Positions 7,267 to 59,699 of a stretch of 64,000 bases of DNA are shown here, piece after piece; the stretch's first letter is position 1, and the number at the start of each line of letters is the position of its first letter. The translations under genes were made by a program, and so were the position numbers. The stretch lies in assembly GCA_008632985.1 (NCBI GenBank), contig QPGO01000040.1, positions 439,719 through 503,718 on the forward strand. The letters run 5' to 3'. The notes under the pieces were generated by a model. The model ran no database searches and was not told where the DNA came from. It saw only the letters and a list, made by a program, of their open reading frames with translations. This DNA comes from Psammoneis japonica. Its lineage: Eukaryota.

Positions 7267-7329
7267 TGGTGGCCCAGGAGGGGGCAGAGACAAGGCGGTC
7301 GCTTCTGCGGGAGCATCGTTGACTGGCAG

Positions 7330-9480: not shown

Positions 9481-9489
9481 CTTGAAAAG

Positions 9490-10350
9490 CTTTTTTAGCC
9501 CTCTTCTTTAAACACATTTTTGGATGACATTAGGGTTGTGTTTCAAGAACAAAAAGGCAAACATCTCTTGTCTCACTGTGAGGACCCACACCATCACATT
9601 TGGCCAAATCATCACAGTGGGCATGCCTCTTTTTTGCAGCGCAGCAACAAGAAGCAATGTCCAGAGGTGTCTCCTTGACAGGCACAAGAAAGCAAGGTTC
9701 ATTCTCCAGTTTCTTTGGGTGCAATCTTTGGCTCACAACAAATGGGCAAATGAAATTTCTCAAAATCTGCTGGCAGTGCCAAAATGTCTTTTGGAATCTG
9801 AGTCAAAAGTTTGCAAAAAACGGTTGGACAGATCCAACACTTTGAACGATGTTTTTGGCACTCCCCAGGTTGTGCAGAGGGCAACTGGAAATGACAAGGT
9901 TGCCCCACACTTGGTCAAACAGAGCACACAGTCAGATTGACCAGACTGCTTGTGCCATTTTGAAGCAGTCCACTCAAGCCTCCTGCAACTCAAAAGTGCA
10001 CGTGCAAGTTGAGGAGCTTGCCTGGCCAGCGGTCTCTCAGCGGGGCGGAGCTCAGCCGCGTGAGATGGCGCCACTCTCTGAGGACAACATGTGTGCAGGT
10101 GCTGCTCAAGATTCAACATCTTGAAAATTCTAGATGGAAACTGAATGAGAGTGAGTCACATGATGCGTCCTGTCAAAGACAAAAGAGACACTCAAAACTT
10201 GGCAGCTGGAAGAGCTCGTCGGGCAAACCCAGCGATTTTTGTGCAGAGTTGAGTTCTCCAGCAGCTGCTCCTCTGGGCAGTGCTGGCAAGCAATGACAGG
10301 GGTGATGACAATGCGGTTTAGAGTCACCAATGGTGGTTGCATTGTCATTT
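9490..10350 (-). pseudogene. Decayed LRR-family gene relic (block A, right part)
   Basis: Translation IWPNVM..FAFLFLKHNPNVIQ matches the C-terminus LWPHVL..FVFWFLKHNPNYVK of the LRR gene at 38359-39533. CG/TA-depleted. Confidence 0.55.
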
Positions 10351-10595
10351 TGATTGGAGTGGCATTGTCGATCTTCGCCCGAACAACCGGTCATTCTTCT
10401 ATCTGTTTACCTTGCCTTGTGGTGTCCGTGTTTGAATGATCTCAGAGTGTCATGTCTGTGCATGCCGTATGACCGACGACCGACCACGTGTCCCAAAAAG
10501 ACCGCTCTACGTAGAAGCTTACGTGAAATGAGTACCAGTTAATTGTTCATGAGATGTACCGTTGTTTCTTTCTCAGCATTTTTCGCTTTCAGGCA

Positions 10596-23242: not shown

Positions 23243-25026
23243 CTACTCGGCAGACCACCGTTTTTGAAGCGAATCCAACCTCGCCTCATATTCTTCTCTC
23301 CACAGCCGAGCACTCGTCGCAAAGCTCTCTGCCACTTCGGACAAGTTATCCAATTCATCCGGCATGGTAATCGAATCCCCCGCTCCGGCGTCATAGGCCA
23401 GTTGTTGTTGCTGTTCTCGCAACAAATTCTCCGTCGTAAAGGACACGACACGATTGGCCAACGGACGAGAATCGGCCGCGGCGGCCGCCGCCGCAGCGGC
23501 AGCAGCCGCACGCCGTGATCCAAACGACCGCGGTGGTGCCACGGCGGCGGTGGATAGAATGGAACCACTGGCCAAACTCGAGGGATCGGCCGTTCCGCTC
23601 TGTACCGTCAGTGGCGAGTGCGATCGACTCCGTGGCTCGTCCAAACGACGAGCGGCAGCGTCGTCCGTCAACATGCGACCGCGGACACTGTCGCCTCGGG
23701 TCGTGGCTGTCACCACGGTGGACGTGAGGGTCGAGTTGGTGACGCTTGTGGCCAGACTGGAATTGCCATCGGGGTCTCCGCGAGTGGCGCGGGTGGACGT
23801 TCCGTGTTCGCTGACTTCTCCCAGCATGGGATTGAGTAAAATCGATTCCAGTGTACCGCCAAATGGATGATGGCGTGACGATTGAGTCGGTGCTGTCATT
23901 CAGGAAAAAGATAGAAAAGGAACACAACAAATTAGCATACAGAGCAACAACTTCTCAAGTCATTCAGCACAAGCCACACACAATATCAACTTACTCGAAT
24001 CCGATCCATCAATAGATCCATTGTCGTCATGAGAATGAACATGATGATTTCCATCTTCATCCGCCGCATCATCACTCTTGTTGTACAAGTCTTCTCCGTA
24101 TTCATTAAATCCCTCTTGCGTCACTCCACTCGCCAAGGACGCTCCACTCGAAATGACGGCAATGTTGGTGGGTCCCTCCGACGGCCGCGGCAAACGATTT
24201 TCTTCAATGGTCCGAAAGGGTCGACGCTGTCGTTGGGCCGCCTCGCGGCGTTCCACCTTGGCTTCCAACCGTAACAGCTTGAGCTCCATGGCCACCATGG
24301 TTTCGCTTTGCATCAATAACTGGGAATGCAAACGACCCTCGAGTGCCGTGCGTTTGGCAGATTCAGCCTGTAATACACTCAAAACTAGAAAACAAAGAGA
24401 TTAGCATAAAGCACGTTTCAATTCATTCACGATATATTCTCAAGAAACAAAAAATAAAAATTCATACCTTTTTCAAAATCCCGACGACTCTGATCTCGCA
24501 ATTCCCACAAGGTCTTGTCCAAGTGTTGTTTGAGATTTCCCATGAGCGCTTGCATAGTATCATTGGCGGTGGGTGATTTCGTCGTCAAGTTACGTGGCGT
24601 CGTACTAGTACTCGCTTGCTCGTCCATTTGTACCACGAGTCCCTCTAAATCTTCGGTATTATCATGATTTACCACTTGTCCCGAAGCTACCGAATAGACA
24701 GACGATGTCATGCTAAAATCAGCACGAGAACGACGTTGTTGTGGTAGTATTGAATTCATGGGTGGAAGTTGTAAGACTTGATCCGGTGGTGCTGCTGCTG
24801 CGGAAGAAGAAGCATTTGTCAGATTGGTGGCTGAAACGGGAGTGTCGAGTTCATTCATGGTGAGATTGCGTGGTGGTGTTGAAATACCGTCTTGATGATT
24901 GGTGTTGATTTCCGCAACAACGTCCGTCAGTGGTGGAGGAGGAGCGTCTACTTCTTCTTCTTCGTCCTCTTCGACCCGCTTACTGTCAATGCTGCTGCGT
25001 TCGTTATTGTTGTTGTTGTCGCTCAT
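23243..25026 (-). CDS. Hypothetical low-complexity/coiled-coil protein, 3 exons
   Basis: ORFs 24427-25026, 23960-24382 and 23243-23899 are collinear with intron-like gaps. Coiled-coil segment and EEYEARLD C-terminus. Confidence 0.6.
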
Positions 25027-25329
25027 GGTGGTGTTGGTTTCTTTGCGCTGTCAGCGACGACGCGAGTGCCGAGGTTTTTTCGGTCCGTTGACGTTGAAAT
25101 TATATATCTAAGTGACTGTAGTAAATGTATGTTCTTTTTGAATGGGTTCTTGATCAACGTAAAAGACAATTCCGAAGGACAACGACTCACTCGACTTGGT
25201 TCTGCGATTGTCCCGCCCATGACCCCTGACCGCAGACTCTCTAGCTAAACCGAGCTGGCTGCTAGAGGGAGAGCTTGTCGCAGCCACTCTAGAATGGAGG
25301 TTGATTAGCACAGCAGCCACCCCAATCAA

Positions 25330-27710
25330 TGCATGTTAAAATTGCAAGAAAGCTCAAAATGTGATCCAGAAGATTTTGCGAGGACACCCAACAATGCAGT
25401 GTGTGTGTGCATGCCCCCCCCCCCTCAAGAAGAGCCACAAATCAAGATGGACCTGTGCAGCCTCCTGAAGCCACACCAGTTTGTGTCAAGTTCAGTGGCC
25501 TGGAGAGATTTTCAAATGGGCTGCAGCAAACAGCTTTGCGTTTGCAGTGCAGCCCTCTCCACCAGCTCTTCTTCTTGTTTTGCTGTGTGAGAAACACAAA
25601 ACACAAGAAGTGCCAGGGGGGCAACTGTGAAAGAGAGGCACCAAGTTTTGCTGCCCTCAATCAACTGAGTGAACTGCCTGTCCTTTCCAGCCAGCTTTCA
25701 AAAATGACACCATGCCTCTGACTGACAATGACCCTCTCAAAACTGATGTGTCAAATGCTGTGCTCAGTTGCTTGGTGGATGCTGGTGCTTTTCTGTGTCT
25801 TGCACCTGCAAACACGCAATCTCCCTTGTTGCCACCAGGAGCACACAACAAGAACCAATCTCTGCTCACTCAAGGTGAGGCCAGCTCTCAAGGGAACAAC
25901 TGGCACTCTGCACCACTTTGCTCAGCAAAAGAGCTTGCATTTTGTGGCTTGAAGAACAACAGTCTGGTGATGGTCATGACACAATTTTGCCATCATCAGA
26001 AGCCATGACAACACGGCCAAAGTGGAAATTTGGACCCAACTTGAAATCAAGAGAGCCTCAACTCCACCAAGTTTTTCTTCTTCTGTGTGGTGCTCTGGGG
26101 AAGCATTTCTGAATGGGCTTCAAGCTGCAATGCAGCAGGTTGGGTTGGCAGCTGGCACTTCCCCGAGAGCAACACAAGGCCTGGCTGGTTGCCTTTGTGT
26201 TGTCACACCTTGCCAGCAGAAGAGAGTGGGTGCATTGTTGGCTGGCTGCAGCTTTTGCTGAATGGGGCAGCACAACTCAATTGCTGCCGCATTCAGCGCA
26301 CCATTTTGTCAGCTGCATCGCAGTTCATGAGAAAGAGCATGCACACTTTGGCATCTGTGCCATGAGGTTTCTGCAGGTGCATGACCAACTTTTGTGCACC
26401 TCACAACCATGGCAACTCCCAATGGCAAATGACACACCAACAGCAGCCTCTGAGAGGTCCAAATCATGTTCAGGCACACCCTCATCTTTCCTTTGTGGAC
26501 TCTTGCTCTCCAATCACACAAAGCCATTGTGCTGGGCTTTTTGCATCATCTCCATCTTTGTCTTTGCAGGAAGCTGCCCAAGCTCTTGAATTCACCTGGA
26601 AAAGAAGCACCTGACGAGCTTGTCATTGCACACTTGTGTGGCAAAATGTTCCTCAACACACTCTTGTTTGGCTTTTTGTTCACACATGGCTCATGCACAC
26701 AACACTCTTCAGAGGGAGCAAAGCTTGCCATCCTCACACTCTCTTTTTCTTGTCATCCAAGTGGGTGCTTCAAGCCATCTTTCTGGGCCAGAGTTGAGTG
26801 CAGGGACCAAAAGCCATCACTTCCTTCTGCCAGTTCTTGCAAAAAGACCAGGCAGAAACAAACAAAATTTTGTCAGAAATGTCGCAAGCAAGCGCACAAG
26901 AAGAGATTGGCTTCTCAAGGGCTCCTTCTACATGGGTCAAGCAAATGACAAGTTTGGGTGGAATTTTCATGAGAACAACCAAGCCCACCTTTGGCATGGA
27001 CTCATTGAGAAACATTGGCCCCTTGTTGCAGCCCCATGTGCTGAAATGGCCTTGTTTCAGCAAACCATCTTGAGACAAAAACTGGCATGCACCTCATTCT
27101 TTTCTTTGGCACCCTTGCATCTTGCACGCCTCATGGTGTTTTCTGTCTGTGTTGGCCCATTTCAAAATTGTTTCAAAGTCAGAATGCCAACTTTTGTCCA
27201 CATGCCCGTCTCCCCCTCCTCCTCTTGGAGAGCAGGCAGCCGCACAGCTTGTTTCTTGTTGTCTGGGAGCAGATGCACTCAAGATTTCTGGCCAAAGCAA
27301 ACAAACCCATTGCAAAAAGACAAAAAAGCCAAATGCTGGCCACCAAAACATGATTTCACAATTTGGAGCAGAGTCAGACTGCAGCCAAGAAACACCAAGA
27401 GAGATGGAAGAAGTGGCTGTGTGAGCACATGGAACGTTGCGATTTGTGTGCAAGCACAGTGTTTTGGCAGCTGAGGAGAAAAAGTGTGACAGCATGGTTT
27501 TTTTTGTTCCCTCCATGATTTCCTAATGCCTCACATGCTCATAAAACACGCGAAGCACTCTCAGGCAAAGTGTTTGTAGAAGTGCTTTGCAGCCACAGCA
27601 CTTGGTGCTGTCTTTTCCAAAATGTCTGTGTGTGCAACAGTGTGAGGCGCCAGAGCAGGTGACACACCACCAAATTGCAGTCTGCCAATGAGGAGGTGAT
27701 TTCATGTCAC
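25330..27710 (-). pseudogene. Block C: hypermutated copy of the SET-domain gene and its flanks (partner ~32900-35400)
   Basis: ~26960-27330 aligns to ~34640-35010 (e.g. ATAGACTCGT vs ATGGACTCAT). ~25445-25550 aligns to ~32955-33050. CG/TA nearly absent. Confidence 0.85.
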
Positions 27711-27910
27711 AGAGGGCGGCGGCCTCGGGATTGTCGTGGGAGAATGGAATGCAGGTCTACACGTCACGAACGAAACCTCCGTGTTGAAGATTCGACGACA
27801 TTCCAACGCAAATCATACGACGCAGGCCAGACATTTGCGCGGGAAAGGCAATCACTACACTTGAGTAGAAGCTTCTCATTTTTTCGACTGGATGATTCGT
27901 TCAGCTGACC

Positions 27911-29449
27911 ATGACGATTACCTTTGCCGGAGAACGCTTTCTTGCCCCAGACACGGGTCTTCCCGACTATGAATCAGAGCGATTCTGGATCGTCGTGAAA
28001 GCAATTATTGTTGTCTTTGTTTTCGTCGTGGTTTTGCCCGTCACACTGGCGACTCCGGTTGCGGATGAAATTGTGGTTAGGCCAGAACGCAACAAGCAAC
28101 CGACAAGCAAGGCAAACAAAAGGGGAAAGAAGGTGGTTGAAGAAATCAAAGAGGGAGAGACCAAGAAAGAAGCTCCTGTACAAGCTCCACTTTTGCTCCT
28201 AAACATTTTGGTAAGGCAACTTGCAGTCTGAATCGTATCATTGACAGTCAAACCTCCATATTAGAATTCGCATTCGCCACACCGACAGCACCAATATTGC
28301 TCTCTCACAGTTTCACATGCCATCTTACCTTGCCGTTATTCTCTCTTTATCAGTGCATGTTTACACTATTGGCCTTGATCATGACGTCGTCCAACAACAA
28401 ACTAACGGCGAGATCTTCGTTTGCCGCTCCGCTCTTTTCTGAAGAGGAATGCCAAACAATTCTGGATTTTTCTCACAAGGCGGCCCAAGCCAATGCGAAA
28501 CAAAATCCTGGCGATGAGCTCCTGTCACTTTCGCCAGTTGGGTGGCGAAAAGACCGGCACAAGTCCTACCCCACCACCGATTTGAACGTTGTTACTGACC
28601 CATTTACCAAGGAAGATCGATTGTTCTTAGCGGAACGTCTAAACAAGAGGCTTGGTCCTCTTATTGAACGTATCTATGGAATTACACCAGCGGCGATTCG
28701 TGCCAATGATGTAAGTATGGACACTTATCGTAAGTGGTATTATACTGAAACTTGTCTAAACCTTCACGTTATTGTTCTCTGCGTAGATGTTTGTGGTTCG
28801 ATACGATGCCACCAAGGGACAGTCTCATTTGCGACGACACACGGATTCTTCTCATGTGACTTTCAACGTGCTGCTGAATGACGAATTCGAGGGTGGTGGC
28901 ACTCGCTTTCATAACAGATGGACCGAACAATACAAGACGGTGAAACCCGAGGTGGGACAGGTTTTGATTAACAATGCAAACATTGTCCACGAGGGAATGC
29001 CCACCACTGGTGGGACGCGGTACATTTTGGTGGGCTTTACATCAATTGATCGATTTGATCCCTTTACTAACAAATCAACAGGACTTTCTTGGTTTGCCTC
29101 GTGGTTGTCCTTACCGTGGGTACAAGTGAGAATGAAGGAGGGGACGGAAAGTTGGAGAAAGCAGCGGACTCATCCGATTTTCAACAACAAGTACTTTCAA
29201 TCACTCTTTCGCGACATTCATGTAGCCTTCACGTGTTTGGAAGATTGGTTGGCGCCACACCGGATCGTAACGGTAGTGGAGACTGCCAACACCACTCAAT
29301 ATCTAGCGACACTAGATGCCTCGGATGATTCATTGTCGGGAAATGCAACGTGGTTCTCGGGTCAACAAATCAACGTCGACGTGGATGGTACCATTACGGA
29401 GATGTGGAATAGCCGACAAAGCAACGAAAGAGCCTTTCGAGAACTGTAG
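27911..29449 (+). CDS. 2OG-Fe(II) oxygenase (PLOD/P4H-like catalytic domain) with N-terminal TM segments, copy 1
   Basis: HTD..FNVLLND.FEGGGT.F, VHEG and RYILVGF motifs. Introns 28211-28333 and 28711-28786. Confidence 0.85.
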
Positions 29450-29779
29450 TGAAATAGATTGTGGGCGATTAAGCCCACTGTTAAACAAAAACTCAATTCG
29501 TAACTAATTCGTTTCGTAATGGTGTTGCTACCAACATTGGAAAAAACGCACGAAGCGCACTTCTTTCTTCCCTGCTTTTAGAGTCAATAGAAGCGCAAGG
29601 ACACTCTAGAGGGGTCCTTTTCTTTTCGTCTGTTGCTTGCGTAGCAGCAATTTTGCGGCTCGGTTCTCTGCACTGGATCATTAATCCGTTCCATTCTTAC
29701 CGTGAAACAAAGTCCCTGAGGCGACACATGCTCGTCGGTAAATGCAACGTGGCTTTTGGCCCGACCAGACGATGAGAGT

Positions 29780-32700
29780 GCCACACGACAGACCTGTCTT
29801 CCACTGCTTCTGTTGGATGGTAATGCCATGCGACAAGTGATTCCACAGAGAATCCACCAGCAGATTGTTCAAATGTCTTGGCATTGTCTTTCCCTTGGAA
29901 AGCTGGCTGCATTTTTGTTAAGACATTGGTTGAGTGCCAGGGCACAGCTGCAATCTGAATGGTGCCAACGGGACATTCATTGGGGTCTGGAAAGCACACT
30001 GATGGAAAGGAGCTGCACTGTGCTAGAGTCCACACAAAATCTGCCATCATTGAACTGAGGCCACTGTCCACACAGAATTGGCTGTTCCTTGCCAGCCCAC
30101 CAGGCTCCTCTTTTTTCAACTTGCATCTTGACAGAGTTCATGTTGCACTCCAAGAACCAAAGCACAAGTTCTCATCACTTGAATGACCAGCCAAGAGATG
30201 TGCTGCCAGAGAGCACACCAGCAGCAACTTGAATGGGTGGCATGTGGCTGACTGTGGCTGCTGCATGCACCCACTCTGGCATTTTCTGTAAAGCCACAGT
30301 GCAGGGATGCCGTCATTTTTCTGAAATTGCTCTGCTGTGTCCAAAGGCCCAGCTGCCAGCCCCAGCTCATTTCAGACTCCTGCAATGCAGCCAGCATGTC
30401 AAGATCTGATGGTTGACATTTCTTTCTCTCTGCTGGACTCAAATCTGGCTGAGGATGAGGAGCACATGAAGCACTGTGTTGGACCCATCATCTCTGTGGT
30501 GCCCCTCAAGTTTCCAAGGCTGCTCCACCAGATTGGCTCCATCTTTTCAGCAGACAAATGTGCGCTTGTTGATCAGGGTGGTGTGAGCAACATTTTGAGC
30601 ATGATGGCTGACGTGGTGGTGCCATGCACTCTGCCAGTGCGGATGCCTCCAGCCAGAGTGGCTCTGTTGAACACAGTCACTCAACAGTGGCAAATGTGAT
30701 CCAGGCAATTTTCCATGCATTGCAAGGTCACCTTGAATCTGGCTTTTTGTGATGTGAGAATCATGTGTCAACAAAATTTTGGTGAGTGTGAAACTTGTTT
30801 TCTCAGCCGAGCTGCTTGTGACAAGTGTTCCCACACATCCACACATGAACACAAGCACATTTTTCTTCTTTTTTGGCAGGTGGATGACTTTTCAACCAGC
30901 ACATGACTGCAAGAGTCATGACACGCGATCAAAATTTTCACAAACCTGGCATGGCTCCTCAGCTTGCTGCTGGAGAAGATGACACACTGTCCACGCATCT
31001 TGTTTTTTGCAAGGAGAGTTCAGTGGGACCAATGTTCACCAGTGCAATGACTTTGCATTGCTTTCATGCCACAGCTGCATTGACTGTGTCCTGATGTTGC
31101 ATGGTTGGCTCATGGTGGCCACTGATGAACACACTTCTGATTGTCAGGAGGTGACCCCACTCCCAGTTGAGTCAGTTTTCAAGTCACACTCTGAAGTTGG
31201 GCCTGTCAAGAGCTTGTCCAAACACAATGAATTGGCCATGGCTCAGAGCCTTGGCCATCGCAGCCAACCTCCTTGGCGAGTTGCTGTTGTGTGCACACGT
31301 CATTTGTCATCTTGGCATCAGCCATGACATCATGAAACTTTCCACCAAGCTCACCTTCTTGCTGGCTCCAGTTCACCACACTGCCTTGAAGGGTGTCACA
31401 AAGTGCCTTTGATGCATGAGATGCACTCCAGCCCCACAATGAGGGCATGACTGCATGTGACATGGGTCTGCAGAATTCTGCATGCAAGCTCTGCCACTTG
31501 TGTTCTGGTCAATGGATGTGTTTGTTTGCAGTGAATTCAAACCTCTTCGTGCTCAATGCTTTTGAAAAACTGCCTTTGCCAGAGCATTCTTAAGACATCA
31601 AAGAGTGGCTTTTGGCAAAAAAATGTCAAAAAGTTGTTGAGTGAAGAACCACCTGACAATTGCACTGCAATCTGCAAGAAACCCAAGAATGGCTCTTTGC
31701 CATCTGCTCATCCTTTTGAGCATCTTGTGGTGAACCCATCACTGCCTGAATTTCCTTGTGCTGACTCACCCCCCCCCCCCAACCGGCGGCTTTCTTGGAT
31801 GCCACATGTGCAGCAATGATCTCTGCAGCTGCCTTTCTGCCACAGGGCATGGGTGTTTGTTGGCAGGTGGTGTGATTTCATGTAGATGCAAGATGCAATG
31901 ATCTGTCGCTGCAATGAACTCTGTCAAGGCTGTGAGCTCTGCACTGCTGGTCCTGCTCCTTTGTTTGTTGACAGCAAGCTGACTGCCCGAGCGCACTCAC
32001 ACCACATTGATGTTCAGTGGCCACTCGTGCTTTAAGATTGGAAGGAAGCTGGGCAAATTGTCGCTTGACATGTTTCTGGCATTGTTGACACAAGTGATCA
32101 TGCCCAGCACACTTGTCAGCTTGTGGGACACCACTGGTGCTGAGACATGTGTTTGTGATTCTTTGGTCATGATCTGGTTTGCAATGCATGCTGCTTGCTG
32201 ATCACACCACCTCTCCCTTTTGTTCTGTCTCTGATCTGCATTGTCCAGCTCAGACATGTTGGATCAGGGGAGGGTGTCAGCCAATGGGTCACAATGTGGT
32301 GTGTGGCCAGACTGTGTTTGTGAATGATGGTCAGACGCATGGCTCAAACAGCCGAGCAGATGTCTCCTTCTTGCTCTTGTTCGCTGTTTCTCATGTTGTC
32401 ACAGTTGCCCATTTGCACATCACAGAGATCCCTCAAGCTTGTTTTTCTTGCTGCTTCCATTCCAACATCTGCAGCTGAGATCCCCCTTGGAACAACACTG
32501 GGCACATTGGCCTGCTCTGCTGTTGTCAGCACTGTTTTGAAGTGTGCCTGAAGCAGCTTCTTGTCAATGAGGGAAAAGCTCCTCCTCATGCCAACTTCAA
32601 TTTCTCTGGCACAGTTGTTCTGTGCAGGAGGGACACCATTGACTGCTGGCACAGAGAGCTTGCCAACCTTGATGAATTGCTGCAGATTGGGATTGATTGA

Positions 32701-33260
32701 CTTTTTCATTTTGTGCACACTCAACCGTGGTGGTTTGCTGGGCCAAATTTGCCCCAAATGAGGTCACCAACAAGAGACTTTGTCTTGCATGGACAAGTGA
32801 TCACTTCTTCAATGATTTCCACTTTTGACTGAAAATCCATGTTTGAAGAGCTCCAACATTCATTTTGTCAGCTCTTGAAGCATGAAGCTGCCCAGCAGTG
32901 CCACGCTTCTGACTTCCAAGGCTTCCAAGAACATTGTCTGCCCATGCCAGGTTGAGATGGATCTGTGCTGCCTCCTGAAACCATTTTGTGTCAAGTTCAG
33001 ATTTTCAATTGAGCTGCAGCAAATGGCTTTCGATCTGCAATGCAGCCTGTTCCCCTTCTGCTGAGGGACATCATCATGAATGCCGGGGGTGGGGTGGGGT
33101 GGGCAACTGTGAAAGAGGGGTGTGCCAAGTCTCGCAAATTTGCACCATTTCAGCAAGAAGAATCTGGTGATCATGATGCCAAAGAATCTGTCACACAATC
33201 ATGCCAGCATCAGGAGCCACGACAGCAGCAAAAGTGGCAACCGCGGACCTGACTTGAAAT
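29780..33260. pseudogene. Block D: decayed LRR 3' end (~30100-30450), an unidentified ~2.4-kb decayed insert, and decayed flank shared with block C
   Basis: 30110-30230 aligns to 38385-38500. 32955-33300 aligns to parts of 25445-26090. Whole block is CG/TA-depleted. Confidence 0.7.
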
Positions 33261-33498
33261 CGAGAGAGCTACGATTCTGTGAGGTTTTTCTTCTGGGCCT
33301 TGTGTGTACTTCCACTGCAACAATGATGGTGTGAGCATGCAAAAAACATGTCTTTCATTGGCGGATAGATTAAAATAGTTTACAATCTGTGGCGCTGCTG
33401 CTTTCCTGAGACGATCCCGCACTCTCTGCTTGATTAAAGGGCTGCATGCAGTGCAAAGGTTGGATTATGGCTTGCTGCACTCTACTTGATTCCCCAGC

Positions 33499-35040
33499 TC
33501 ATTCTGACGACTCGGCCATTGAATTCACGCGAGCAAAGGCGCGCATCGCATTTCGACGAACTTTTTCGTACACACTTAAAAGCAGTTGGTGATATTCGGT
33601 CAGCATTGTCCAATGCGGATGATGAGCCAAAAACTTCTCGTTTACTTGTGGTACGGGCCCGAGCTTGGAAAGGACATTATCGGCCTCTTGAAAAAGACAG
33701 AACCATACTTTCTTGGCGTACTTATGATGCATGTCATTCAATGCATCAGTGTCATTGGTAGAAGCAAAAAGGGATTCCACCATTTTCAAGTCTTGTGCAG
33801 CAGCGATAATCTCGCTTGGGTTTTTACCATTGTAGAGGTCACGGAGAATGACAAAGTAGAGCATGGCGTCAACCACTCGGTCTGGAATGGCGCCGTCTTC
33901 AACACGAAATGCAATGGTCTTGTAATCCATAAAGCCCAGTGCAAGTGCTTTTTCTTCGACTTCTTTGCTATTATACGACGAGAAGGAATTAATAATGGAC
34001 GTAGCGGGTAGCATGTCAAGCGACATATCACAGAAACCATAAACCACGGGGAAGCGAGGGGCGAAATGCTCATGCCCATAATTCAAAAAGTGTTCATCAT
34101 TTGAATCGTCGTCGAGTGATGCAAGGTTCATCATTAGCACCGCGTCTTCTATGGACCCTTGCTCGACAAACACCGAGCCATTGGATCGGTGATTGAACAA
34201 ATCTCCCAAACAGACAAGATTCATTACATCGTCTCCATCTTTATCCTTGTAGGAAGCTACCCAAGCTCTTGAGTTCATAATGGAAAAGACCCACCTGACG
34301 AGCTCGTCATTGTATTTGTGCGGTAAAATATCCCTCAACGCATTCTGATAGACATTTAGCTTTTTGTCCACGCGATTCATGTAGGACTTGAGAGGGAGTT
34401 TGTTAGCATACTCTCTTTCCTCGTCATCCCAATAGATGCTTGAAGCCATCTTTTTTGGCCAGAATTGAATGTAGGGGTACCAAAAGCTATCGCTTCCTTT
34501 GGCCGTTTCTTGCAACAAGACTAGAAACAAACAAAATTCGGAAACGTCGCAAGCAAGTATACAAGAATGGCGTTCCAGGCTCTTTCTGGCTAGTTTCTTG
34601 AGGGATCCATCCACATGGGTAGAAGAAATGACGAGTTTGGGGGGAATCTCCATGAGAACTTCAGAAAGCCCACCTTTGGCATAGACTCGTTCCGTAACAT
34701 TGGTCCCCTTTTTGCAACCCCATGCACCGAAATAGTCTTGTTTCAGCAAAGCATCTTGAGCCAAAAACGTGACATGCGTTTCATTCTTTTCTTTGGCGTC
34801 GTAGTACGTCTTATAATACTTTGTGACTGTGTTGGCCCATTCCAAAACTGGTTTAATGTCGGAACGCTGACTTTCGTCCGGGCACCCCTCTCCTCCTCCT
34901 CTTGGGAGAGCAGACAGCCACGCAGCTCGTTTGTCACCAAGGAACGGACGACGTTCAAGATTTCTGACTGAAGCAAACGAACCCGTTGCAAACAGACAGA
35001 AAAGACAAACGCTGCCTGCCAGAACGTGATATGATTTCAT
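33499..35040 (-). CDS. SET-domain methyltransferase (Rubisco LSMT/SETD3-like) with signal peptide
   Basis: SFWYPYI..W, WVFSIMNSRA, DLFNH and FLNYG..VYGF motifs. Single 500+ aa ORF. Confidence 0.85.
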   Translation of the reverse strand: MKSYHVLAGSVCLFCLFATGSFASVRNLERRPFLGDKRAAWLSALPRGGGEGCPDESQRSDIKPVLEWANTVTKYYKTYYDAKEKNETHVTFLAQDALLKQDYFGAWGCKKGTNVTERVYAKGGLSEVLMEIPPKLVISSTHVDGSLKKLARKSLERHSCILACDVSEFCLFLVLLQETAKGSDSFWYPYIQFWPKKMASSIYWDDEEREYANKLPLKSYMNRVDKKLNVYQNALRDILPHKYNDELVRWVFSIMNSRAWVASYKDKDGDDVMNLVCLGDLFNHRSNGSVFVEQGSIEDAVLMMNLASLDDDSNDEHFLNYGHEHFAPRFPVVYGFCDMSLDMLPATSIINSFSSYNSKEVEEKALALGFMDYKTIAFRVEDGAIPDRVVDAMLYFVILRDLYNGKNPSEIIAAAQDLKMVESLFASTNDTDALNDMHHKYAKKVWFCLFQEADNVLSKLGPVPQVNEKFLAHHPHWTMLTEYHQLLLSVYEKVRRNAMRAFARVNSMAESSE

Positions 35041-36167
35041 TGTTTGCACAGAATGCAATCAAGGCGTCTGAACCAAGAACGCTGCCGCAAGGAACACTGA
35101 GAGGGACACGAAGTGATTGTGAGCACGGAATGTCACGATTTTGTGCAAGCCATGGTTTTGCAACCGAGGAAAAAAAATGGTGACAGCGTGGTAATTCTTT
35201 TTGTTCCCTCGACGGTTTCGCAATGCGTCACACGCTCACGAAACACGCAAAAGCACGTTCACGACAAGTGCTCGCACTCCGCAGATCCGCAATGTCTGTT
35301 TGCGACGATGTGAGGCCAGTGCAGGACGTGTCACAATTACGACATCGATGAGATTATTTCACATCGCTGACGGTAGCGGCCTCGGAAGTGTCGTGGGACG
35401 GGATGCAGTGCAGTATGGAGTTACGACTAGCACAATGTGAACTGTAAAAAACGTCCCGAACACCCGTATCGCATTTTTTGTACAACAATATTTAACGATA
35501 ACGGTTTTTAGCAAATAATTAGGGCATTTTTACAGATGTAACCCATACAATTTGTACTCAAAAATCGATACTTGCAACACAATTAGAAGATTTTTCATAT
35601 GTTTCCTATTCAAATTGGAACTCAAATTTTGATATTCTTTTACAACTCCGACTGCTTCATAATCAATAAACAAGTTCGAATGTTTTATTAAAAGACGTGG
35701 CCGGCGTTTCGGTCCATTTTGGCGGCTCCGACATTTGAATTTACTTAACACCAGACATTTCTATAGGACATCAGTTCGTAGAACCTTAAGTACGTAGACT
35801 GGTACAAATTCTACATCATGAGTCATGTGCAGTCATTTTACATACCGATCATTCAGACATGAACTATATATACAAATACAAAATATGCAGTTCGTTATGG
35901 TCTATTTTGCACATTGTGCTAGTCGTAGCCTCATAGGATCATGAGGGAAATCCTGGGGAGCGGCATTAACGTAATTACATATAACAATAAACTGGAATGT
36001 ACACGTCACAACCGGAAACTCCGTGTTGAAGATTCGATGATGATTCAATGCGAGGCTACGGACGCCAGACAGACATTTGCGCGGGAAAGGCACGCATACA
36101 TCACGCATCAATCAACACAACCAAGGGTGAAGCTTCGCGATTTTCTACTGGATTCGTTCAACTCACC

Positions 36168-37712
36168 ATGACGATTACCTTTGCCGGAGAACGCTTTCTT
36201 GCCCCAGACACGGGTCTTCCCGACTATGAATCAGAGCGGTTCTGGATCGTCGTGAAAGCAATTATTGTTGTCTTTGTTTTTGTAGTGGTTTTGCCCGTCA
36301 CACTGGCGACTCCGGTTGCTGAGGAAATCGTGGTTCGGCCAGAACGCAACAAGCAACCGACAAGCAAGGCAAAGAAAAGGGGAAAGAAGGTGGTTGAAGA
36401 AATCAAACAGGAAGAGACCAAGAAAGAAACTCCTGTACAAGCTCCACTGTTGCTCCTGAACATCGTGGTAAGGCAACTTGCAGTCTGAATCGAATCATTC
36501 CAATTCACATTTATAATTGTTTCTCCCTCATTAGAGTTCGCAACACCAACAGCACCAATATTGCTCTCTCACCATTTCAAGTGTCATCTTACCTTACATT
36601 ATTCTCACTTTTTCAGTGCATGTTTACGTTATTGGCCTTGATCATGACGTCTTCCAACAACAAACTAACGGCGAGATCTTCGTTTGTCGCTCCGCTCTTT
36701 TCGGTGGAGGAATGCCAAACGATTTTGGATTTTTCTCACAAGGCGGCCCAGGCCAATGCGGAACAAAATCCTGAAGATGAGCTCCTGGCACTTTCGCCGG
36801 TTGGATGGCGAAAAGATCGGCACAAGTCCTATCCCACCACCGATTTGAACGTTGTTACTGACCCGTTTACCAAGGAAGATCGATTGTTTCTAGCGGAACG
36901 CCTTAACAAGAGGCTTGGTCCTCTAATCGAACGTCTCTACGGAATAACGCCAGCGGCGATTCGTGCCAATGATGTAAGTATGGACATTTCTTGTAAGTGG
37001 TATTATACTGAATCTTTTTAAACTTTCACGTTGTTGTTTCTCCGCTTAGATGTTTGTGGTTCGATACGATGCCACCAAGGGACAGTCTCATTTGCGACGA
37101 CACACGGATTCGTCTCATGTGTCTTTCAACGTACTACTCAATGACGAATTCGAGGGTGGCGGCACTCGCTTTCATAACAGATGGACCGAACAGTACAAAA
37201 CGGTGAAACCCGAGGTAGGACAGGTTTTGATTAACAATGCAAACATTGTTCATGAGGGAATGCCAACCACGGGTGGGACGCGGTACATTTTGGTGGGCTT
37301 TACCTCGATTGATCGATTTGATCCCTTTACCAACAAATCAACTGGGCTTTCTTGGTTTGCTTCGTGGTTGTCCTTACCGTGGGTACAAGTGAGAATGAAG
37401 GAGGGGACGGAAAGTTGGAGGAAACAGCGGACTCATCCGATTTTCAACAACAAGTACGTTCAATCGCTCTTTCGCGATATTCATGTGGCCTTCACGTGTT
37501 TGGGGGATTGGTTGGCGCCACACCGGATTGTAACGGTAGTGGAGGCTGCCAATACCACCCAATATCTAGCGACACTAGATGCGTCGGATGATTCATCGTT
37601 GGCAAATGCAACGTGGTTTTCGGGTCAACAAATCAACGTCGACGTGGATGGCACCATTACGGAGTTGTGGAATAGCCGACAAAGCAATGAAAGAGCCTTT
37701 CGAGAACTGTAG
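36168..37712 (+). CDS. 2OG-Fe(II) oxygenase, copy 2 (near-identical protein to 27911-29449)
   Basis: Same exon structure and catalytic motifs. Only a few amino-acid differences in the last exon. Confidence 0.85.
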
Positions 37713-38358
37713 TGGAATAGATTATGGGCGTGTATGCCTACTGTCAAGCAAAAACTCTCAATTCATGATTCCATTAGTTTCGCAATAGGATTTTCCCAAT
37801 GTTGAAAACACGCAGGGTGTGCCCTTCTTTTCCCCTGATTGTAGAGTCAATACAAGCAAAAGGATACCAGACATCGTTTTATTTTCGTGTGTTGCTTCAG
37901 CAGCGGCTATGGTGCTCTGAATTGAATCATTTCCGTGTCGTTCTTACCGTGAAACAACGTCCAGCGGCGATACATGCTCGTCGGTAAGCACAATGTATGT
38001 GGCTTTCGGGCTGACGGCATATGACAGGTCCGTGCTGTAGACGTGTAGCAAGCATTTCAAGTAGTGTGCTCTTCTGCTTCTGTTGGATGGCAACACCATA
38101 CGACAAGTGCTTCCACAGAAAATCCAACAGAAGATTCTAAAAAATCTCGGCGTTGTCTTTCTCGTGTGAAGCTGGTTGCTTTGGTTATGTATTGGTTGAA
38201 TAGAAAAGGCATGGCTGCAATCTGAATTTTATCAACGGGACAGTAATTGGGTCTAGCAAGCGCATTCATAGAAAGCTACATTGCGCTAGTCTACATGTCA
38301 TCTACCGTCATAGAACTGAGACCCCTGTGCATGTTTACGAACATCCACAAAACACTTG

Positions 38359-39533
38359 CTATTCTTCACGAGCTCTTTTGGTTCCTCTTTGTTCAACTCG
38401 GTTCTTGACATAGTTCGGGTTGTGCTTCAAGAACCAAAACACGAAGTTCTCGTCGCTTCGACGACCCGCCAAGACGTGCGGCCAGAGAGCATCAGGAACT
38501 CCATTTTCCCGACGTAGCAGGTGTCGTCCAGCCTTGTTCATTTTGCAATAGCAGTCCATTTCATCTTGGGATGCAGAGGCGGGCATCTGCACACTTTCAA
38601 GAGAATACGAAGCCTTGCCGATTTCTTCGGGAGAAATGGTGAGCGCATTGCAACCCCCCAATTTTAGCCATTTGAGACTCGGCAGCGATAGAACCTCTTT
38701 GCTAATTTGAGTCAATTGTTTACAGTGCCTCAAATCCAGCCCCTCCAGGTTTCGAAGTGATCCCATTTCGTGAGGCAGCTCTTCAAGGTCAAGAGTGTCT
38801 CTCAAATCCAAGATTGTCAGATTCAACAAACTGCTTGTGCCAATTCTTTGCAAGCATTTTGCAGTGTGTATTGTGACAAGGCATGCAAGCGGAGAGTTTT
38901 CAGATTGGATAGCTGACCAATCTCAACAGGAAATTCAAAGAGACTGTTGCACCCGGAAAGGTGGAGGACTTCCAATTGATGCAACTGTCCCATTCCCGCT
39001 GGCAGCCGAGTGAGAGTCTGGCAAAAGGACAACATCACCCTTTTCAAACTTCTTAAACAGAAAATGTCATTTGGCAGCCCCTTGAGACTTTTGCAGTATG
39101 ACAATTTCAACAGCTCAAGACGCGAGAGCTGATGCAAACTACGAGGCAACCGTTCGAGCTTGAAGCAACAATCCAATCGCAGTTCCTTCAAGCTTGTCAA
39201 TCGCCCAATCTCCTCTGGCAAGGTGACGAGATCGCTACATTCACCAAGCTTCAGCACTTCGAGTTTTGTCAATCTCCCAATCTCTGGAGGCAGTCGCTGG
39301 AGGTTTGCGCAACGCATCAAGTCCAACTGCACCAGTCGGTGCAACATGCCGATCTCAGGCGGCAATTCAACCAATCTTGAGCTCCACACTCTCAGTATTA
39401 TGGCGTTTACGTATCCTTCATAACCTTCTTCAACTATGACATGAACTCCCTTCATAATTCCTAATTCCGAATCTGACAGTCCTGTGACTCGTGCCAGTGC
39501 ACTCTCGATTCTAGCAGATGCGTCGTCCTCCAT
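38359..39533 (-). CDS. Leucine-rich repeat protein (plant-NLR-like LRR units), one frameshift near 38850-38890
   Basis: Repeated LxxLPxEIGxLxxLxxLxLxxC units in ORFs 38823-39590 and 38359-38853. Confidence 0.75.
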
Positions 39534-40144
39534 TCTGCAGCAATGGGGAACTGGATGCGCAAAGGCGACTTGTCTCCTCGAATTCAGCACAGTCTTTCAC
39601 AATAAAAAGTAAAAGATGCATCTCACGAGTGAGGAGTCCAGACAATGACGCAAACAGTTGATGGTGACTGTTATCGACCGCAAAACTGAAACCGTAGCAA
39701 GCCATCACGCAAAAATTAGAGCCGATCGTGATTTTCACTACTAATTTCGCCGATTTGACACTCATATTCAAATAGAAGTAGAATATTTTTGCGTTTTTCA
39801 TGTTTTAGGCTCTTTTCCGAGCCATTTCTCCCTCATACAATCTACAATCTCTATTCTCTCTGATCTCTGCAGATAGATGCAATGGTCTGAATGCCGTCGC
39901 TGGTCGCTGGTCCTCTGTGTATTCCATTGCCAAGCGTACCGGTAGAACTAGAGAGGAGAGTATGATTTGAAAAGATAGCGATATTGCCTTGATTATTTGA
40001 AGTCTAAACGATGAACGAAGTCGGACCAACATCGTTTGAGGATGGAGTTTCTTCGTAAGTGACTGCAACATACCGTTTTGAAGCGTGATAATTGTGACAT
40101 GCTGCTCATGCCTTACGTTTTGCTTTGTCTCTGATTGTAGCATC

Positions 40145-48639: not shown

Positions 48640-48989
48640 CAACATCACACGTGGAGCAACGATGAGAATGGTCCCCTTTAGTCCCTGGGTTGGGAATTTG
48701 AAAGCAAAAGGGCATTATTATTGATGGGAAGGAAAAGGTTGTGATGGAAATAATGCAGCCTCAGAAATGCGATTAGATCGTAACGTACCATATACCGTTA
48801 GTCATGGTTTGGCATCGCACGGAGAAAAAACCTGGTTTTGTTTTTCGATAGATTGATTCGTGATGCATTTTAGATGCTGGAAAATTTGCGTTTGAGTTGA
48901 ATTGCCGGTCAGCCAGCTGCTCGCAAAGTATGTCTATAAGCCACTCATGTGCCAGAAGCTTCTTGTGGACAAGTTTGACGACAAGTGGG

Positions 48990-50400
48990 TTTGTTGGCCA
49001 AGAACTGCTTTTCAATGCATGAGGTCATGCAGAAAGCAGCACACACAAACTCCACAAAACCAATGGAGCCCAACCTTGTTCATCTTGCAACAGCAATCTG
49101 CCAGGGTTGGTTTTGCTCCCATCAAGCGAATGTGACAAGTCCATCTTGAAATTGAATGGAGAGGATCTTCAGCCATGGCTGACAGCTGGAAACCCATGTC
49201 TTCCTATTTTGTGTTTGGCATTGGCCACTTTGCTGCTCTTGGGCATTCTCATGAGAGTCACTGTGTGGGCCCACTTGCTGGCAGCAACACTTCACCTCCA
49301 ACCCTGGTGCCCACACACCCACTCCTGCCATGATGCCAACTTCGACATGATGAAATGGCAAGACAATTCATGGCCTTGGCGAGGCAACACAGAGTCTCAA
49401 ACATGCTGAACCAACAAGTCAATGTTGCCAAAAGGGAACCCCACAAGGTTTCCTGCACCACTTGTTGCTCTTGCCATGGTTGCTGCAGTGGCTGTGGTTT
49501 GCCTGGAAGTCCTCAACAAACTTTGACATTGTGATGTGATGGAGTGCCTGCTGATGCCACAATGCATTTCATGCGAAGGTTGGCGAGATCAGCAATGAGC
49601 ATGTTTTCATTTCCAAAGTGTTGCCCCAGACATCCACTGTGCAAGTGCTGGGCAAAGTGTCTTCTCTTCAATGACTCCATGCCCAGGCTTCTTGTGCTTC
49701 CTGCTTGTTTTGGATGATGGTTCGACAAAGCAGCCCAGCACACCCGAGTGCAAGGCAGTGGATTGAACCAAAAACCAGTGCCCCATGGCCCACAGGGCTT
49801 GACCACAGCTGTGGCATGGCAGTGGCAAAAGCAACAACAGCCAGTCAGCCAGCTCCAATTCCTGCAGCATTCATGGACATGGCATGAGGTGCAGCTTGAA
49901 TGTTCATTTTCATGTGCTCGTTGAAGCAGCGCCATCACTTTGCCTGGTGCTTGTGGTTTCCTGTGACAGACTGGCTGGAAAGGAGGCAACAATGCAACCC
50001 TGCACTCAGGGTGCAGCAGCAGCCACCACCAAGCTCTCACACAAGTGGCGATGGCCACACCCCAAAGTGCGTCGCTGTGTGGAATGATGGAGCTGGCTGC
50101 CCGCCGCCCAAGCTCCACGAGATCATGTGCCCACATTGTTTGGCCACCACTGGCTGGTGATGCCAAACATGCAGGCATTGCCAGCAAGTGCACCCAAAAA
50201 TGTTCAAACCAGGGTCACAGTGCAAAACACTCCGAAACAGAACACCTGCTGTGCTTTCCATTTTGTGACATGCAGGCAGCACAGCCCTTTCATGGCACCG
50301 CCAACTTCGTCATCAGCGCAAGTGCCGTTGTGGCCGAACATATGTCATGTGCACAACTGCCGGCACTGCATACACTGCAATGAAAAATTACAGCACATGC
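48990..50400. other. CpG/TpA-depleted block E; left part duplicated at ~53500-53660 and ~56740-57100
   Basis: 49170-49350 aligns to 56860-57045. Dinucleotide signature ends abruptly at ~50400. Confidence 0.7.
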
Positions 50401-50791
50401 TGTAGCTACTAGCTCTGCTAGTAGCCACCACCAGCTCTCTCTAGCTAGAGAGTAGAGAGAGGGCCAGAGAGACTGCTGGCTAGTTTGAGAGACAGAGCCC
50501 CCTTCTACCGTATAAAATGAAGATTAATTTTGTACAGTATCGTCTTTTGAACGCAACGGAAAAATAATGAATAATGTCCTCTTAACTGTATCTGCATTAA
50601 CCATATAATACTGACTTTCTCTTTATTCTTGAATACATCTATTAAAAAATTTCCTTCCAACGCTTGGCGTTCCCGCCATCTGCATCATCATTCGCACACA
50701 TTTTTTATTTTGATTTTGTGTGTGTGTGTGTGTAGTAATAAACCGGCCAACACTTACTTTATGATTTCGCATTGAAGCCTTTCAACTAACC

Positions 50792-52995
50792 ATGAAAATG
50801 GGAAACGCCGCTTTGCTCGTCACCTTTTTGCTGATCCTGCAGTCACCTCGTGTTTATGGAAGACAGTGGTGTCCCGTTTGGCCCTTTCGATGTCCTCCGA
50901 CAATTAGCGAACAAGAACGCACCGATCTGTGCGATGCGTATTGTAACGAGTTCGCTGTGGCATGCCCCAATGTGGATATAACATCTCTTGCCATATCCAG
51001 TGAGAAAGCTACTGGTTCTCCCGTCAGTCACAAAGAATGTGTTGCAAAATGATGGATTCAAAAATGAAATTCGATGGAACGCCCCAAGACTTTGACAATG
51101 TCGATAGCATTCAATGTCGAATGAATCATGCGCGAATGCAAATCCAACAAAAGGACTTGGCAAGCTCCGACCATTGTCTTCATGCCATGATTCGTGGTCG
51201 ATCACGGTGTGATCCGAAGAACCCTGAAGCGCGCGCCATGACCGTTCTCTTTGATATCGGCCGCAGCGTGTTTTATGATCCTTTGGGCAGTACGCTTACA
51301 GCGGTGAATCGATTGGCGAGCTATGCTGTGGGCGCTATCTATCTATCTGCTTTTCGAGAACGGCTGCTGGTATCCTATCCCTATGTGGAGATTCCAGACG
51401 AAGATGTGACTTGTTCCGATCCCGAAGACACTCGGTTCCGAACGGCAGATGGTTCGTGCAACAATGTGGCCATGCCAAAGATGGGAGCCACCGGAACGCA
51501 AGTGAGTCAGTCGTTTGATTGAACACATGCGATTGCCTCGTAATCGGTTAATTTTCTTTTTGCTCCGTTTCTTCTTTCTGTTTTGTTTAACGGTCAGTTC
51601 ATACAACTCTTTCAGCCGTCCACGCGACAGGGACTTCCGAGTCCCGAAGCGGTTGCAGAGATTATCAAGAGACCAGAGTCATCAGTCCGCCCGGAGCGAC
51701 TCGCTCCCTTTTCGCAACTTGCGGTCGCTTGGATTCAAATGATGACACATGATTGGTTCGCACATTCTCCCAATGATCCCGGCAAAAATCAAGTGTCGCA
51801 TTGGTGGGATGCCTCGCAATTATATGGTTCCAAAGAAGATCAGGCGACACCGCTCCGTTTGGACGATGGCAAGCTGCATCTGGATATCAATCAAGAAGTA
51901 GATTACGAGGACGGCAGCAACATTCCTCGTACAGGATTTACAGACAATTGGTGGGCAGGTCTGCACGCCATGCACACTCTGTTTATTCGGGAACACAACT
52001 ACATTGTGGACCAATTGGAGGCGCAGTACAAAGGAATGTACGATGAAGAGGAGAAGTATCAATTGGCACGCCTCTCGGTGTCGGCCCTCATTGCCAAGAT
52101 TCACACTGTGGAATGGACACCAACCTTGCTGGATAATGATGTTTCGACCATTGCCCTAGAGACGGCGTGGTGGGGAATCGAGTCGGCGATTAAAAAATAC
52201 GGAAGTGAATTCTTGTTTGATCTGGGCTTTCCTTTACTTGGCGACTTTGCAACGCCGCACGCAGGATCCCACTCGACCGAAGAAACCTTGTACAATACAA
52301 CCTTTCAAATGACCGAGGAATTTGTGGCTGTCTATCGCATGCATCCCCTTCTTCCAGACCACATAAAAGTTCCGGACCCAGCGACGGGAGGAACCAAAAA
52401 GTTTACGTTGAATGAATTGGCCTTTGCCGATGCCCGGCAACTTGTTGAGGAAAAGACCACCCAATCCTTCTTGGAAGGGTTTGGCAAGACTCCGGCGCGC
52501 GCAATTACCTTGCAAAATTATCCACGACAATTGTACGGCCTGGAAAAACCGGGCATGCCTCGCATTAACCTGGCCGCCATTGACATTCAGCGAGACCGAG
52601 AGCGCGGTCTTCCTCTTTACAATGATATGCGCAGACTGCTCTTATTGGAACCCTATGAGTCGATTGATGATTTGACTAGCGATGCAAACGATCGTAAGTT
52701 GCTTAGATCCGTCTACAACGACATTGAAGAAGTCGACCTCATGGTGGGCAGCATGGTGGATCAACAATTACCTTCTGGCTTTGGTTTCGGCATTGTTCCA
52801 TTCCGCATCTTTCAAGCGTTTGCCACGAGAAGGATTTATAGTGATCGATTCTTCATGCAAGACTTTAAGAAAGAGGTTTACACAGAATGGGGTTTCAATC
52901 ATGTGCAGACGGAGACGTTTTCTTCCGTGATTGCTCGGCATTATCCCGAGCTAAAGTCCAAAATGCCCGAGAATCCATTCATGAATTGGGCATAG
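50792..52995 (+). CDS. Secreted heme peroxidase-cyclooxygenase superfamily protein, alpha-dioxygenase-like, with N-terminal Cys-rich domain
   Basis: RTADGSCNN, WIQMMTHDW, HWWDASQLYG, TLFIREHN, AKIHTVEWT, EEFVAVYRMH and RDRERG motifs. Intron 51502-51597. One base missing at ~51051. Confidence 0.9.
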
Positions 52996-53097
52996 CTTAG
53001 TTCGAGCAGTCGATTAGAAAAGTGATGGTATCGCAATAGAGTCAATCAATGTTAGTCGTGTCGAGTTGAGCCATACGGTACGTGAAAAACTATCTGG

Positions 53098-59640: not shown

Positions 59641-59699
59641 GCCACGCAGTGCGTGCAAAACTGTCTGCCCTTTTGTTGCAACACATGTCATCTCTAAAC

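Follow-up and report, generated by a model that had tools for sequence, protein, structure and literature searches.

A 64,000-nt stretch of Psammoneis japonica DNA (assembly GCA_008632985.1, contig QPGO01000040.1, forward-strand positions 439,719 to 503,718; here called the window and numbered from its first letter) carries a tandem segmental duplication in which the gene for a 2-oxoglutarate-Fe(II) (2OG-Fe(II)) oxygenase stands clean between two domains saturated with context-specific mutation. In these domains the steps CpG and TpA have been almost entirely replaced by TpG and CpA, and they contain the remains of a SET-like gene and of a leucine-rich repeat (LRR) gene that were copied in the same event as the oxygenase. 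The locus is a natural experiment, in which segments of one event have met opposite fates, and a peroxidase gene pair in the same window repeats the one-sided pattern with a cleaner spectrum. The pattern argues against a trigger by homology, of the kind known from repeat-induced point mutation (RIP), and for a trigger by chromatin domain. We regard a mutator that is guided by silent domains and independent of homology as the probable explanation of the locus.

Duplicated units and the oxygenase pair

Comparison of the window with itself by blastn gave four collinear matches (25445-25554 with 32955-33047, 74% identity; 25979-26081 with 33193-33294, 75%; 26541-27572 with 34224-35270, 72%; 27758-30215 with 36000-38491, 83%). 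When transitions were hidden by recoding the letters as purines and pyrimidines (RY) before blastn, the identity of the two long homologous pieces rose to 86% and 91%, and the end of homology stayed at 30216/38492. The left edge of the units was placed at about 25320/32823 by transition-blind local alignment (score 100, compared with at most 57 in shuffles). The arrangement is a tandem segmental duplication: two collinear homologous units lie in one orientation with a 2.6-kb non-homologous spacer between them. An earlier note on this DNA had estimated the unit at about 8 kb; the units in fact measure about 4.9 kb (left) and about 5.7 kb (right) and are 2.6 kb apart (30217-32822), the extra length of the right one being mainly a 522-bp inverted-repeat element absent from the left. 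The search for homologues covered the 64-kb window; partners may exist elsewhere in the genome. The features of the locus are as follows, with X2 denoting a run whose contigs include spliced ones and ORF an open reading frame.

25320-30216, unstranded: left duplicated unit, comprising the SET-like remnant, oxygenase-L and the 3' end of the LRR gene (blastn and RY-coded blastn against 32823-38492)
26542-27352, minus strand: SET-like pseudogene, left copy (tblastn with the right ORF, 39% identity over 237 aa, E 2.7e-34; only the N-terminal half recognisable)
27758-29840, plus strand: unmutated island with oxygenase-L (coding sequence 27911-28210, 28354-28710, 28787-29449; 439 aa; PF13640)
30085-30216, minus strand: LRR fragment, left copy, the last ~43 codons (tblastn E 1.9e-5, residues 145-187 of the last ORF)
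30217-32822, unstranded: hypermutated spacer, 2.6 kb
32823-38492, unstranded: right duplicated unit, which runs on into the rest of the LRR gene (blastn, RY-coded blastn, transition-blind alignment)
33502-35058, minus strand: SET-like ORF, right copy, open over 519 codons, with an X2 contig on 33410-35341
35414-35935, unstranded: TA-rich element of 522 bp with 26-nt terminal inverted repeats (88% complementary), found only in the right unit
36168-37712, plus strand: oxygenase-R (coding sequence 36168-36467, 36617-36973, 37050-37712; PF13640, E 8.4e-9)
38362-39596, minus strand: LRR gene, right copy, in two overlapping ORFs of different frames (Pfam LRR_14, E 1.1e-22, and LRR_8)

Contigs of the DNA run X1 span all three junctions of the duplication (24001-25920, 29359-31780 and 31830-35415). 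Mis-assembled haplotypes, which the earlier note had named as a finding that would undo its account, were set aside on the grounds of a synonymous divergence (dS) of 0.24, different flanks and the joining of the copies by these X1 contigs.

Both oxygenases match the Pfam 2OG-Fe(II) oxygenase family PF13640 above its curated cutoff of 27 bits (oxygenase-L 37.4 bits, E 5.1e-9; oxygenase-R 36.7 bits). The translation has an N-terminal hydrophobic stretch and an H-x-D followed later by H, which we take to be the motif of 2OG-Fe(II) oxygenases. The gene model of oxygenase-R is fixed by spliced X2 contigs that skip 36467-36615 and 36974-37049, both introns being GT..AG; in oxygenase-L the spliced frame is open and the GT..AG introns match those of the twin. 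The start codons expected at 27911 and 36168 were confirmed, with 8257 nt between them. An X2 contig on a 97-nt stretch of the left exon 1 departs from the left copy, among the differences listed, at one of six left/right differences, where X1 DNA has the same letter on the left copy, and this contig is spliced on to exon 2; these observations hint that the left copy, or an allele resembling it, is expressed. Run X2 gives no cover over 25135-27969 and 29671-33072, which should not be read as silence.

The left oxygenase was said to be intact and normal in CG and TA even in its introns, and so it proved: the observed/expected (o/e) ratios in its pooled non-coding DNA (767 nt) are 1.11 for CG and 0.65 for TA, and 0.99 and 0.65 in the twin. 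Loss of CG and TA from the oxygenase introns, listed beforehand as counter-evidence to look for, was not seen, introns and flanks both being normal. Both introns lie within the clean island, which begins some 200 bp before the ATG and ends some 340 bp after the stop. The supposed near-identity of the twins, by contrast with their intactness, could not be upheld: exons agree at 92-95%, the 5' flank and intron 1 at about 85-89%, the coding sequences carry roughly 80 fixed differences, and 20 of 439 residues differ. The pair has dS 0.237, a non-synonymous divergence (dN) of 0.021 and dN/dS 0.087 over 439 residues each, and both copies are old and under purifying selection.

A unit of SET gene, oxygenase and LRR gene had been described as occurring twice, and this holds for the SET-like gene and the oxygenase. 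Of the LRR gene only the last ~43 codons and the 3' flank are duplicated, with nucleotide homology between 38111-38492 on the right and 29841-30216 on the left; no other significant tblastn match was found in 29700-33300, very permissive tblastn yielding noise. The right unit continues into the full LRR gene and the left one holds only its 3' end, so that there the left unit must be the derived one. In the right LRR gene, an X1 contig carries one extra G behind 38858, within the ORF overlap 38823-38922, and an X2 contig agrees with the window; either a frameshift allele or an error in the consensus may explain the split reading frame.

The SET label is a weak one. The right ORF is weakly similar to SETD3 and Rubisco LSMT chains in PDB (E 0.002-0.008, residues 174-328), and its neighbours in the Atlas (score 0.94-0.95) carry SET or Rubis-subs-bind on 12-73% of members, SET itself on 12-23%. 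No Pfam family matched it at E≤0.05, and no homologous protein was found at E≤0.001. The left SET-like copy is dead, with two in-frame stops (CGA to TGA and TCA to TGA), about 18 frame-breaking gaps and Tyr codons changed to His or Cys.

Spectrum, direction and age of the hypermutation

Mutated blocks were called by a two-state hidden Markov model (HMM) on CG/TA versus TG/CA steps. About 24% of the window (15,192 of 64,000 nt) falls into eight segments in which CG and TA are nearly gone, TG and CA are roughly doubled and G+C is normal. The left SET-like copy and the DNA to the right of 29789 are hypermutated, as the earlier note had seen, CG and TA being almost absent there. They belong to the two blocks that enclose the left oxygenase:

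25309-27710, unstranded: hypermutated block 1 (HMM and positions of remaining CG/TA; TA 5, CG 19, TG 250, CA 288)
29789-33238, unstranded: hypermutated block 2 (HMM and CG/TA positions; TA 7, CG 30, TG 434, CA 378)

Block 2 spans the LRR fragment and the spacer, crosses the unit boundary at 32823 and extends ~415 bp into the right unit. Kilobases 26, 30, 31 and 32 are fully mutated, with o/e ratios of 0.12-0.15 for CG, 0.02-0.03 for TA and 1.6-2.0 for TG/CA; in the blocks TA falls to 0.02-0.04 and TG/CA climb to about 1.9.

With the right copy used as a proxy for the ancestor, the fates of its dinucleotides in the left unit were as follows.

SET-like segment, TA (n=33): 23 to TG/CA, 0 kept, 5 gaps, 5 other
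SET-like segment, CG (n=53): 33 to TG/CA, 5 kept, 6 gaps, 9 other
LRR fragment, TA (n=16): 8 to TG/CA, 0 kept, the rest gaps or other
LRR fragment, CG (n=19): 11 to TG/CA, 1 kept, the rest gaps or other
Island 27758-29840, TA (n=79): 14 to TG/CA, 49 kept, the rest gaps or other
Island 27758-29840, CG (n=125): 18 to TG/CA, 90 kept, the rest gaps or other

None of the 28 aligned TA and 5 of the 47 aligned CG steps survive in the SET-like pair. There, TA was converted at 23 of the 28 aligned sites, with two changes in the reverse direction, and the left SET-like segment contains in total only 3 TA and 10 CG. Within the island the changes are symmetric (CG 18 from right to left versus 16 in reverse, TA 14 versus 11). 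The order of events can be read from the stretch where both copies lie in a block (25320-25673 and 32823-33157): of the 49 pyrimidine-purine steps shared there, 10 read TG in one copy but CA in its partner, compared with 5 of 314 in the island, and thus the mutation came after the duplication and struck each copy independently. In nine of these ten discordant steps the left copy has CA and the right copy TG, which amounts to a strand bias whose sign differs between the left and the right block edge.

Transversions served as a clock that is blind to the hypermutation. Their numbers per aligned nucleotide are:

SET-like segment: 76/1018
mutated LRR fragment: 35/363
island 5' flank: 21/150
island intron 1 region: 21/229
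island 3' flank: 44/370

The neutral DNA of the island is as old as the mutated flanks. A comparison of divergence outside the CG/TA steps had been proposed; it was run, and the oxygenase non-coding DNA is at least as diverged in transversions as the SET-like and LRR segments.

A second gene pair, detected by RY-coded blastn (50779-53096 with 57469-59667, RY identity 96-99%), was struck in one copy:

50781-53096, plus strand: haem peroxidase gene, clean (Pfam An_peroxidase, E 5.5e-76)
57471-59667, plus strand: haem peroxidase pseudogene, hypermutated, inside the HMM block 56312-60405

The 146 CG steps of the clean gene correspond in the pseudogene to 96 TG/CA, 29 kept and 16 gaps (130 aligned), and its 76 TA steps to 60 TG/CA, 9 kept and 4 gaps (72 aligned); changes in the reverse direction number 3 for CG and 2 for TA. 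One-way changes from CG/TA to TG/CA make up 158 of the 240 differences, the others being 36 transversions and 46 other transitions; by class the events are 96 at CG versus 62 at TA. On the sense strand TA to TG (42) exceeds TA to CA (20), and a runs test found no strand clustering of the converted sites (70 runs versus 78.4 expected, P 0.098). Eight of the nine retained TA steps of this pair lie in TTA, as do 17 of the 60 converted ones. In all blocks of the window together, 37 of 47 surviving TA steps are preceded by T or followed by A, versus 798 of 1956 outside (Fisher P 2.3e-7); the target of mutation seems to be wider than the dinucleotide.

The differences between the window and X1 were examined at 32 of 77 rows, 8 rows within the inverted-repeat element being left out. 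Blocks contain 23 of these 32 differences, among them 7 with CG in the run and TG/CA in the window, 3 of the reverse kind and one TA to CA; the enrichment of CG/TA steps hints that decay in the blocks is still ongoing.

The remaining segments of the window called by the HMM are:

7320-10027, unstranded: mutated segment
10072-10366, unstranded: mutated segment
14939-15480, unstranded: mutated segment of 542 bp (TA 3, CG 4, TG 68, CA 50)
38771-39116, unstranded: short, doubtful segment, weakly poor in CG/TA, within the right LRR gene
48942-50296, unstranded: mutated segment
56312-60405, unstranded: mutated segment containing the peroxidase pseudogene

Segment 14939-15480 overlaps a 258-codon minus-strand ORF without a Pfam match. 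Within the block at 7320-10366, a weak LRR-like pseudogene fragment (9478-9956) shows similarity to the C-terminal portion of the LRR gene on the right (tblastn E ~1e-9). Block 56312-60405 also contains a fragment (56464-56538) of the neighbouring thrombospondin-repeat gene and an LRR-like piece (59987-60157). A Pfam search with 104 block ORFs left 103 without a family and gave one chance-level match (E 0.041).

Block edges and the choice between explanations

The sharp edges of the two blocks lie close to genes:

25309: 259 bp from the upper end of the neighbouring minus-strand ORF (25050; an X2 contig reaches 25047)
27710: 201 bp upstream of the oxygenase-L ATG
29789: 340 bp downstream of the oxygenase-L stop
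33238: 172 bp from the start (33410) of the X2 contig on the right SET-like gene

They do not coincide with the limits of homology. At the right side of the island homology extends about 375 bp past the clean zone into mutated block 2 (29841-30216), so that cleanness does not track homology. The earlier note held that duplication alone is no trigger, and this stands: neither oxygenase copy is mutated, and the SET-like and peroxidase pairs are mutated in one copy only. Its proposal that a live transcription unit is protected gains from the fact that the clean island covers introns and flanks and ends near the gene; the support is indirect, through geometry.

Two further parts of the locus bear on the role of homology. 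For the spacer, neither RY-coded blastn nor tblastn of all window ORFs found a homologue in the window, Pfam gave no match, and no terminal or tandem repeats were found; transition-blind local alignment with both flanks scored 245-281, below the shuffled controls (275-296). The inverted-repeat element lies between the live SET-like and oxygenase genes of the right unit and is unmutated, as is the intergenic DNA around it. It is apparently multi-copy: X1 contigs break at 35411-35413 and 35935, and word depth is 588-694 on the element versus ~62 beside it, depth not being copy number. Homology looks to be neither sufficient, given the oxygenase pair and this element, nor the guide, given the edges and the spacer.

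The sequence shows the duplication itself, the one-way and one-sided changes, the sharp edges, the selection on both oxygenases and the matching age of island and flanks; the chromatin nature of the domains, the barrier and the chemistry are inferred. The history that we favour would run as follows. At about dS 0.24 a piece of ~5 kb, with the SET-like gene, the 2OG-Fe(II) oxygenase and the LRR 3' end, would have been copied a few kilobases upstream. In the new copy purifying selection would have held the oxygenase, and both the SET-like copy, which was redundant, and the truncated piece of the LRR gene would have died. The dead DNA, together with the 2.6-kb spacer and ~0.4 kb of the neighbouring unit, would then have fallen into two domains, within which a region-limited mutator would turn TpA into TpG/CpA and CpG into TpG/CpA. 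Their extent would depend on the condition of the DNA at the site, most likely its packing into silent, methylated chromatin, rather than on homology, with transcription or active chromatin as the barrier. They would halt 170-340 bp outside the coding ends of live genes, and because they stop short of these, the oxygenase between them would be untouched, introns and flanks included. The CpG loss would probably be due to deamination of 5-methylcytosine. For the TpA loss, deamination of adenine may be responsible, by analogy with what has been proposed for the Bigelowiella system discussed below. More speculatively, one could imagine a mispairing modification of thymine at TpA, an idea suggested by hydroxymethyluracil and base J.

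Several observations weigh against this history. A spliced X2 contig is mosaic, with a left-like exon 1 followed by right-like last three letters of exon 1 and start of exon 2 (the joint 28206>36616 skips 8409 nt), and an X1 contig joins 28246 to 36586, skipping 8339 nt; in that sample these contigs may reflect either exchange between the twins, with a conversion tract, or haplotypes that were collapsed. Exon 1 shows only 3 left/right differences in its first 150 nt. Runs X1, X2 and X3 come from one sample, which is possibly the source of the assembly itself, and do not constitute independent support. We infer the barrier of transcription or chromatin from edge geometry alone; the position of the edges could owe something to selection, if lineages were lost once a domain had spread into the oxygenase, and should the spacer be the remains of a mobile element, this element rather than silence as such could have been the trigger.

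The mosaic contigs and the similarity in exon 1, along with the location of the clean island within the longest homologous stretch, would also be expected if hypermutation had covered the whole left unit and gene conversion, with the right copy as donor, had afterwards restored the oxygenase or kept it clean. This possibility, which the earlier note had offered beside protection, is quite improbable in view of a dS of 0.237 and a transversion divergence in the island non-coding DNA (9-14%) that equals or exceeds that of the mutated flanks. No conversion tract is apparent: the longest identical run between the copies is 74 nt, without excess over shuffles, and within exon 2 to exon 3 the longest is 65 nt, as in shuffles (P 0.46). 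Moreover, the ~375 bp of homology inside block 2 are not clean. The peroxidase pseudogene has lost 77-87% of its targets with only 36 transversions in ~2200 nt; since targets were saturated there at less than 2% background divergence, a single old conversion is unlikely to have kept the oxygenase island clean. Selection offers another route to the same picture, if the mutator strikes all duplicated or non-genic DNA alike and the island is clean only through removal of lineages with hits in the oxygenase. Both oxygenases evolve at dN/dS 0.087 and only dispensable copies are mutated, which speaks for this reading. We nevertheless consider it unlikely, for the 767 nt of island introns and flanks are normal in CG and TA with symmetric changes, while the adjacent blocks have lost every aligned TA, and coding selection cannot keep TA at its full level in the 3' flank (390 nt) and the introns (219 nt), except where each hit is an indivisible burst across a whole domain.

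A homology-sensing, RIP-like process that began while the copies were identical, with one copy per pair escaping by chance or selection, would account for the fact that four blocks of the window contain copies or fragments of window genes (the SET-like gene, the last LRR codons, the peroxidase and the weak LRR-like piece), and also for the mutation of both copies at the left edge of the units. It is very unlikely, however, to have left the oxygenase pair of the same duplication event untouched in both copies and the apparently multi-copy inverted-repeat element unmutated, while mutating a 2.6-kb spacer that has no partner in the window, the stretch that this search covered; the mutated zone, moreover, begins 375 bp inside the homology and overruns its boundary at 30216. 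Finally, the blocks might be artefacts of base-calling on modified DNA or of assembly. Nothing speaks directly for this, and it is barely credible: X1 contigs, possibly the assembly's own data, reproduce the blocks with 5-6 differing letters over 2.4-3.6 kb, and the mutated copies also carry indels, stops and transversions as real pseudogenes do.

Relation to known systems

RIP in Neurospora and other ascomycetes raises TpA through C-to-T changes that fall mainly at CpA; it is triggered by homology and usually affects both copies. The process at the Psammoneis locus resembles it in that duplicated genes are destroyed by dense mutation, which consists of transitions only and is sharply delimited. 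However, TpA is destroyed here, whereas RIP makes TpA from CpA, and one copy or neither of a pair is struck, the mutated zone being offset from the limits of homology. In methylated silent DNA, CpG decays to TpG/CpA by deamination of 5-methylcytosine. The same change is seen in the blocks, which would be non-expressed DNA, and CpG differences between the window and X1 occur both ways (7 + 3 of 23), but such decay does not account for TpA, which has vanished from these blocks even more completely. The ordinary fate of duplications is likewise recognisable, in that the oxygenase pair is retained under selection and the SET-like copy and the LRR piece are dead; the decay of the dead parts is nevertheless dominated by two context-specific transitions and does not follow a neutral spectrum.

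For TpA-directed hypermutation we found no published precedent in the literature other than a 2026 preprint on Bigelowiella natans, which describes local hypermutation at TpA in giant-virus and virophage DNA integrated in that alga (Mettrop et al., bioRxiv 10.64898/2026.01.13.699255). There, the larger mutated region is transcriptionally silent and single-copy, and the spectrum is almost exclusively A:T to G:C, for which adenine deamination is proposed (10.64898/2026.01.13.699255). The two systems share the change of TpA to TpG/CpA in delimited regions beside normal DNA, here sharp-edged, and homology is not the trigger there either, the larger region being single-copy. They differ in that CpG to TpG/CpA is equally frequent in the same blocks here. 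In Psammoneis the process has struck dead host-gene copies and a spacer without Pfam match, for which a foreign origin is possible, rather than recognisable viral DNA; the lineage is different, and the evidence consists of fixed differences between paralogs, not of mutation-accumulation lines. What the Psammoneis locus adds is a test of the trigger and four mapped edges around a spared live gene.

A wider proposal can be put forward tentatively, with rather more doubt than trust: the alga would possess a domain-guided, homology-blind system that permanently rewrites silent DNA of any origin, dead host genes and mobile elements alike, erasing both self-complementary pyrimidine-purine steps, TpA as well as CpG, with an insulation fine enough to spare a single transcription unit. 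The losses of TpA and CpG may share one logic, namely a miscoding base modification on symmetric sites in silent chromatin. If a domain-guided system is indeed at work, the locus would be a ready place to test what sets its boundary. The process erases host pseudogenes, and it bears on gene annotation and on estimates of duplication age in such genomes.

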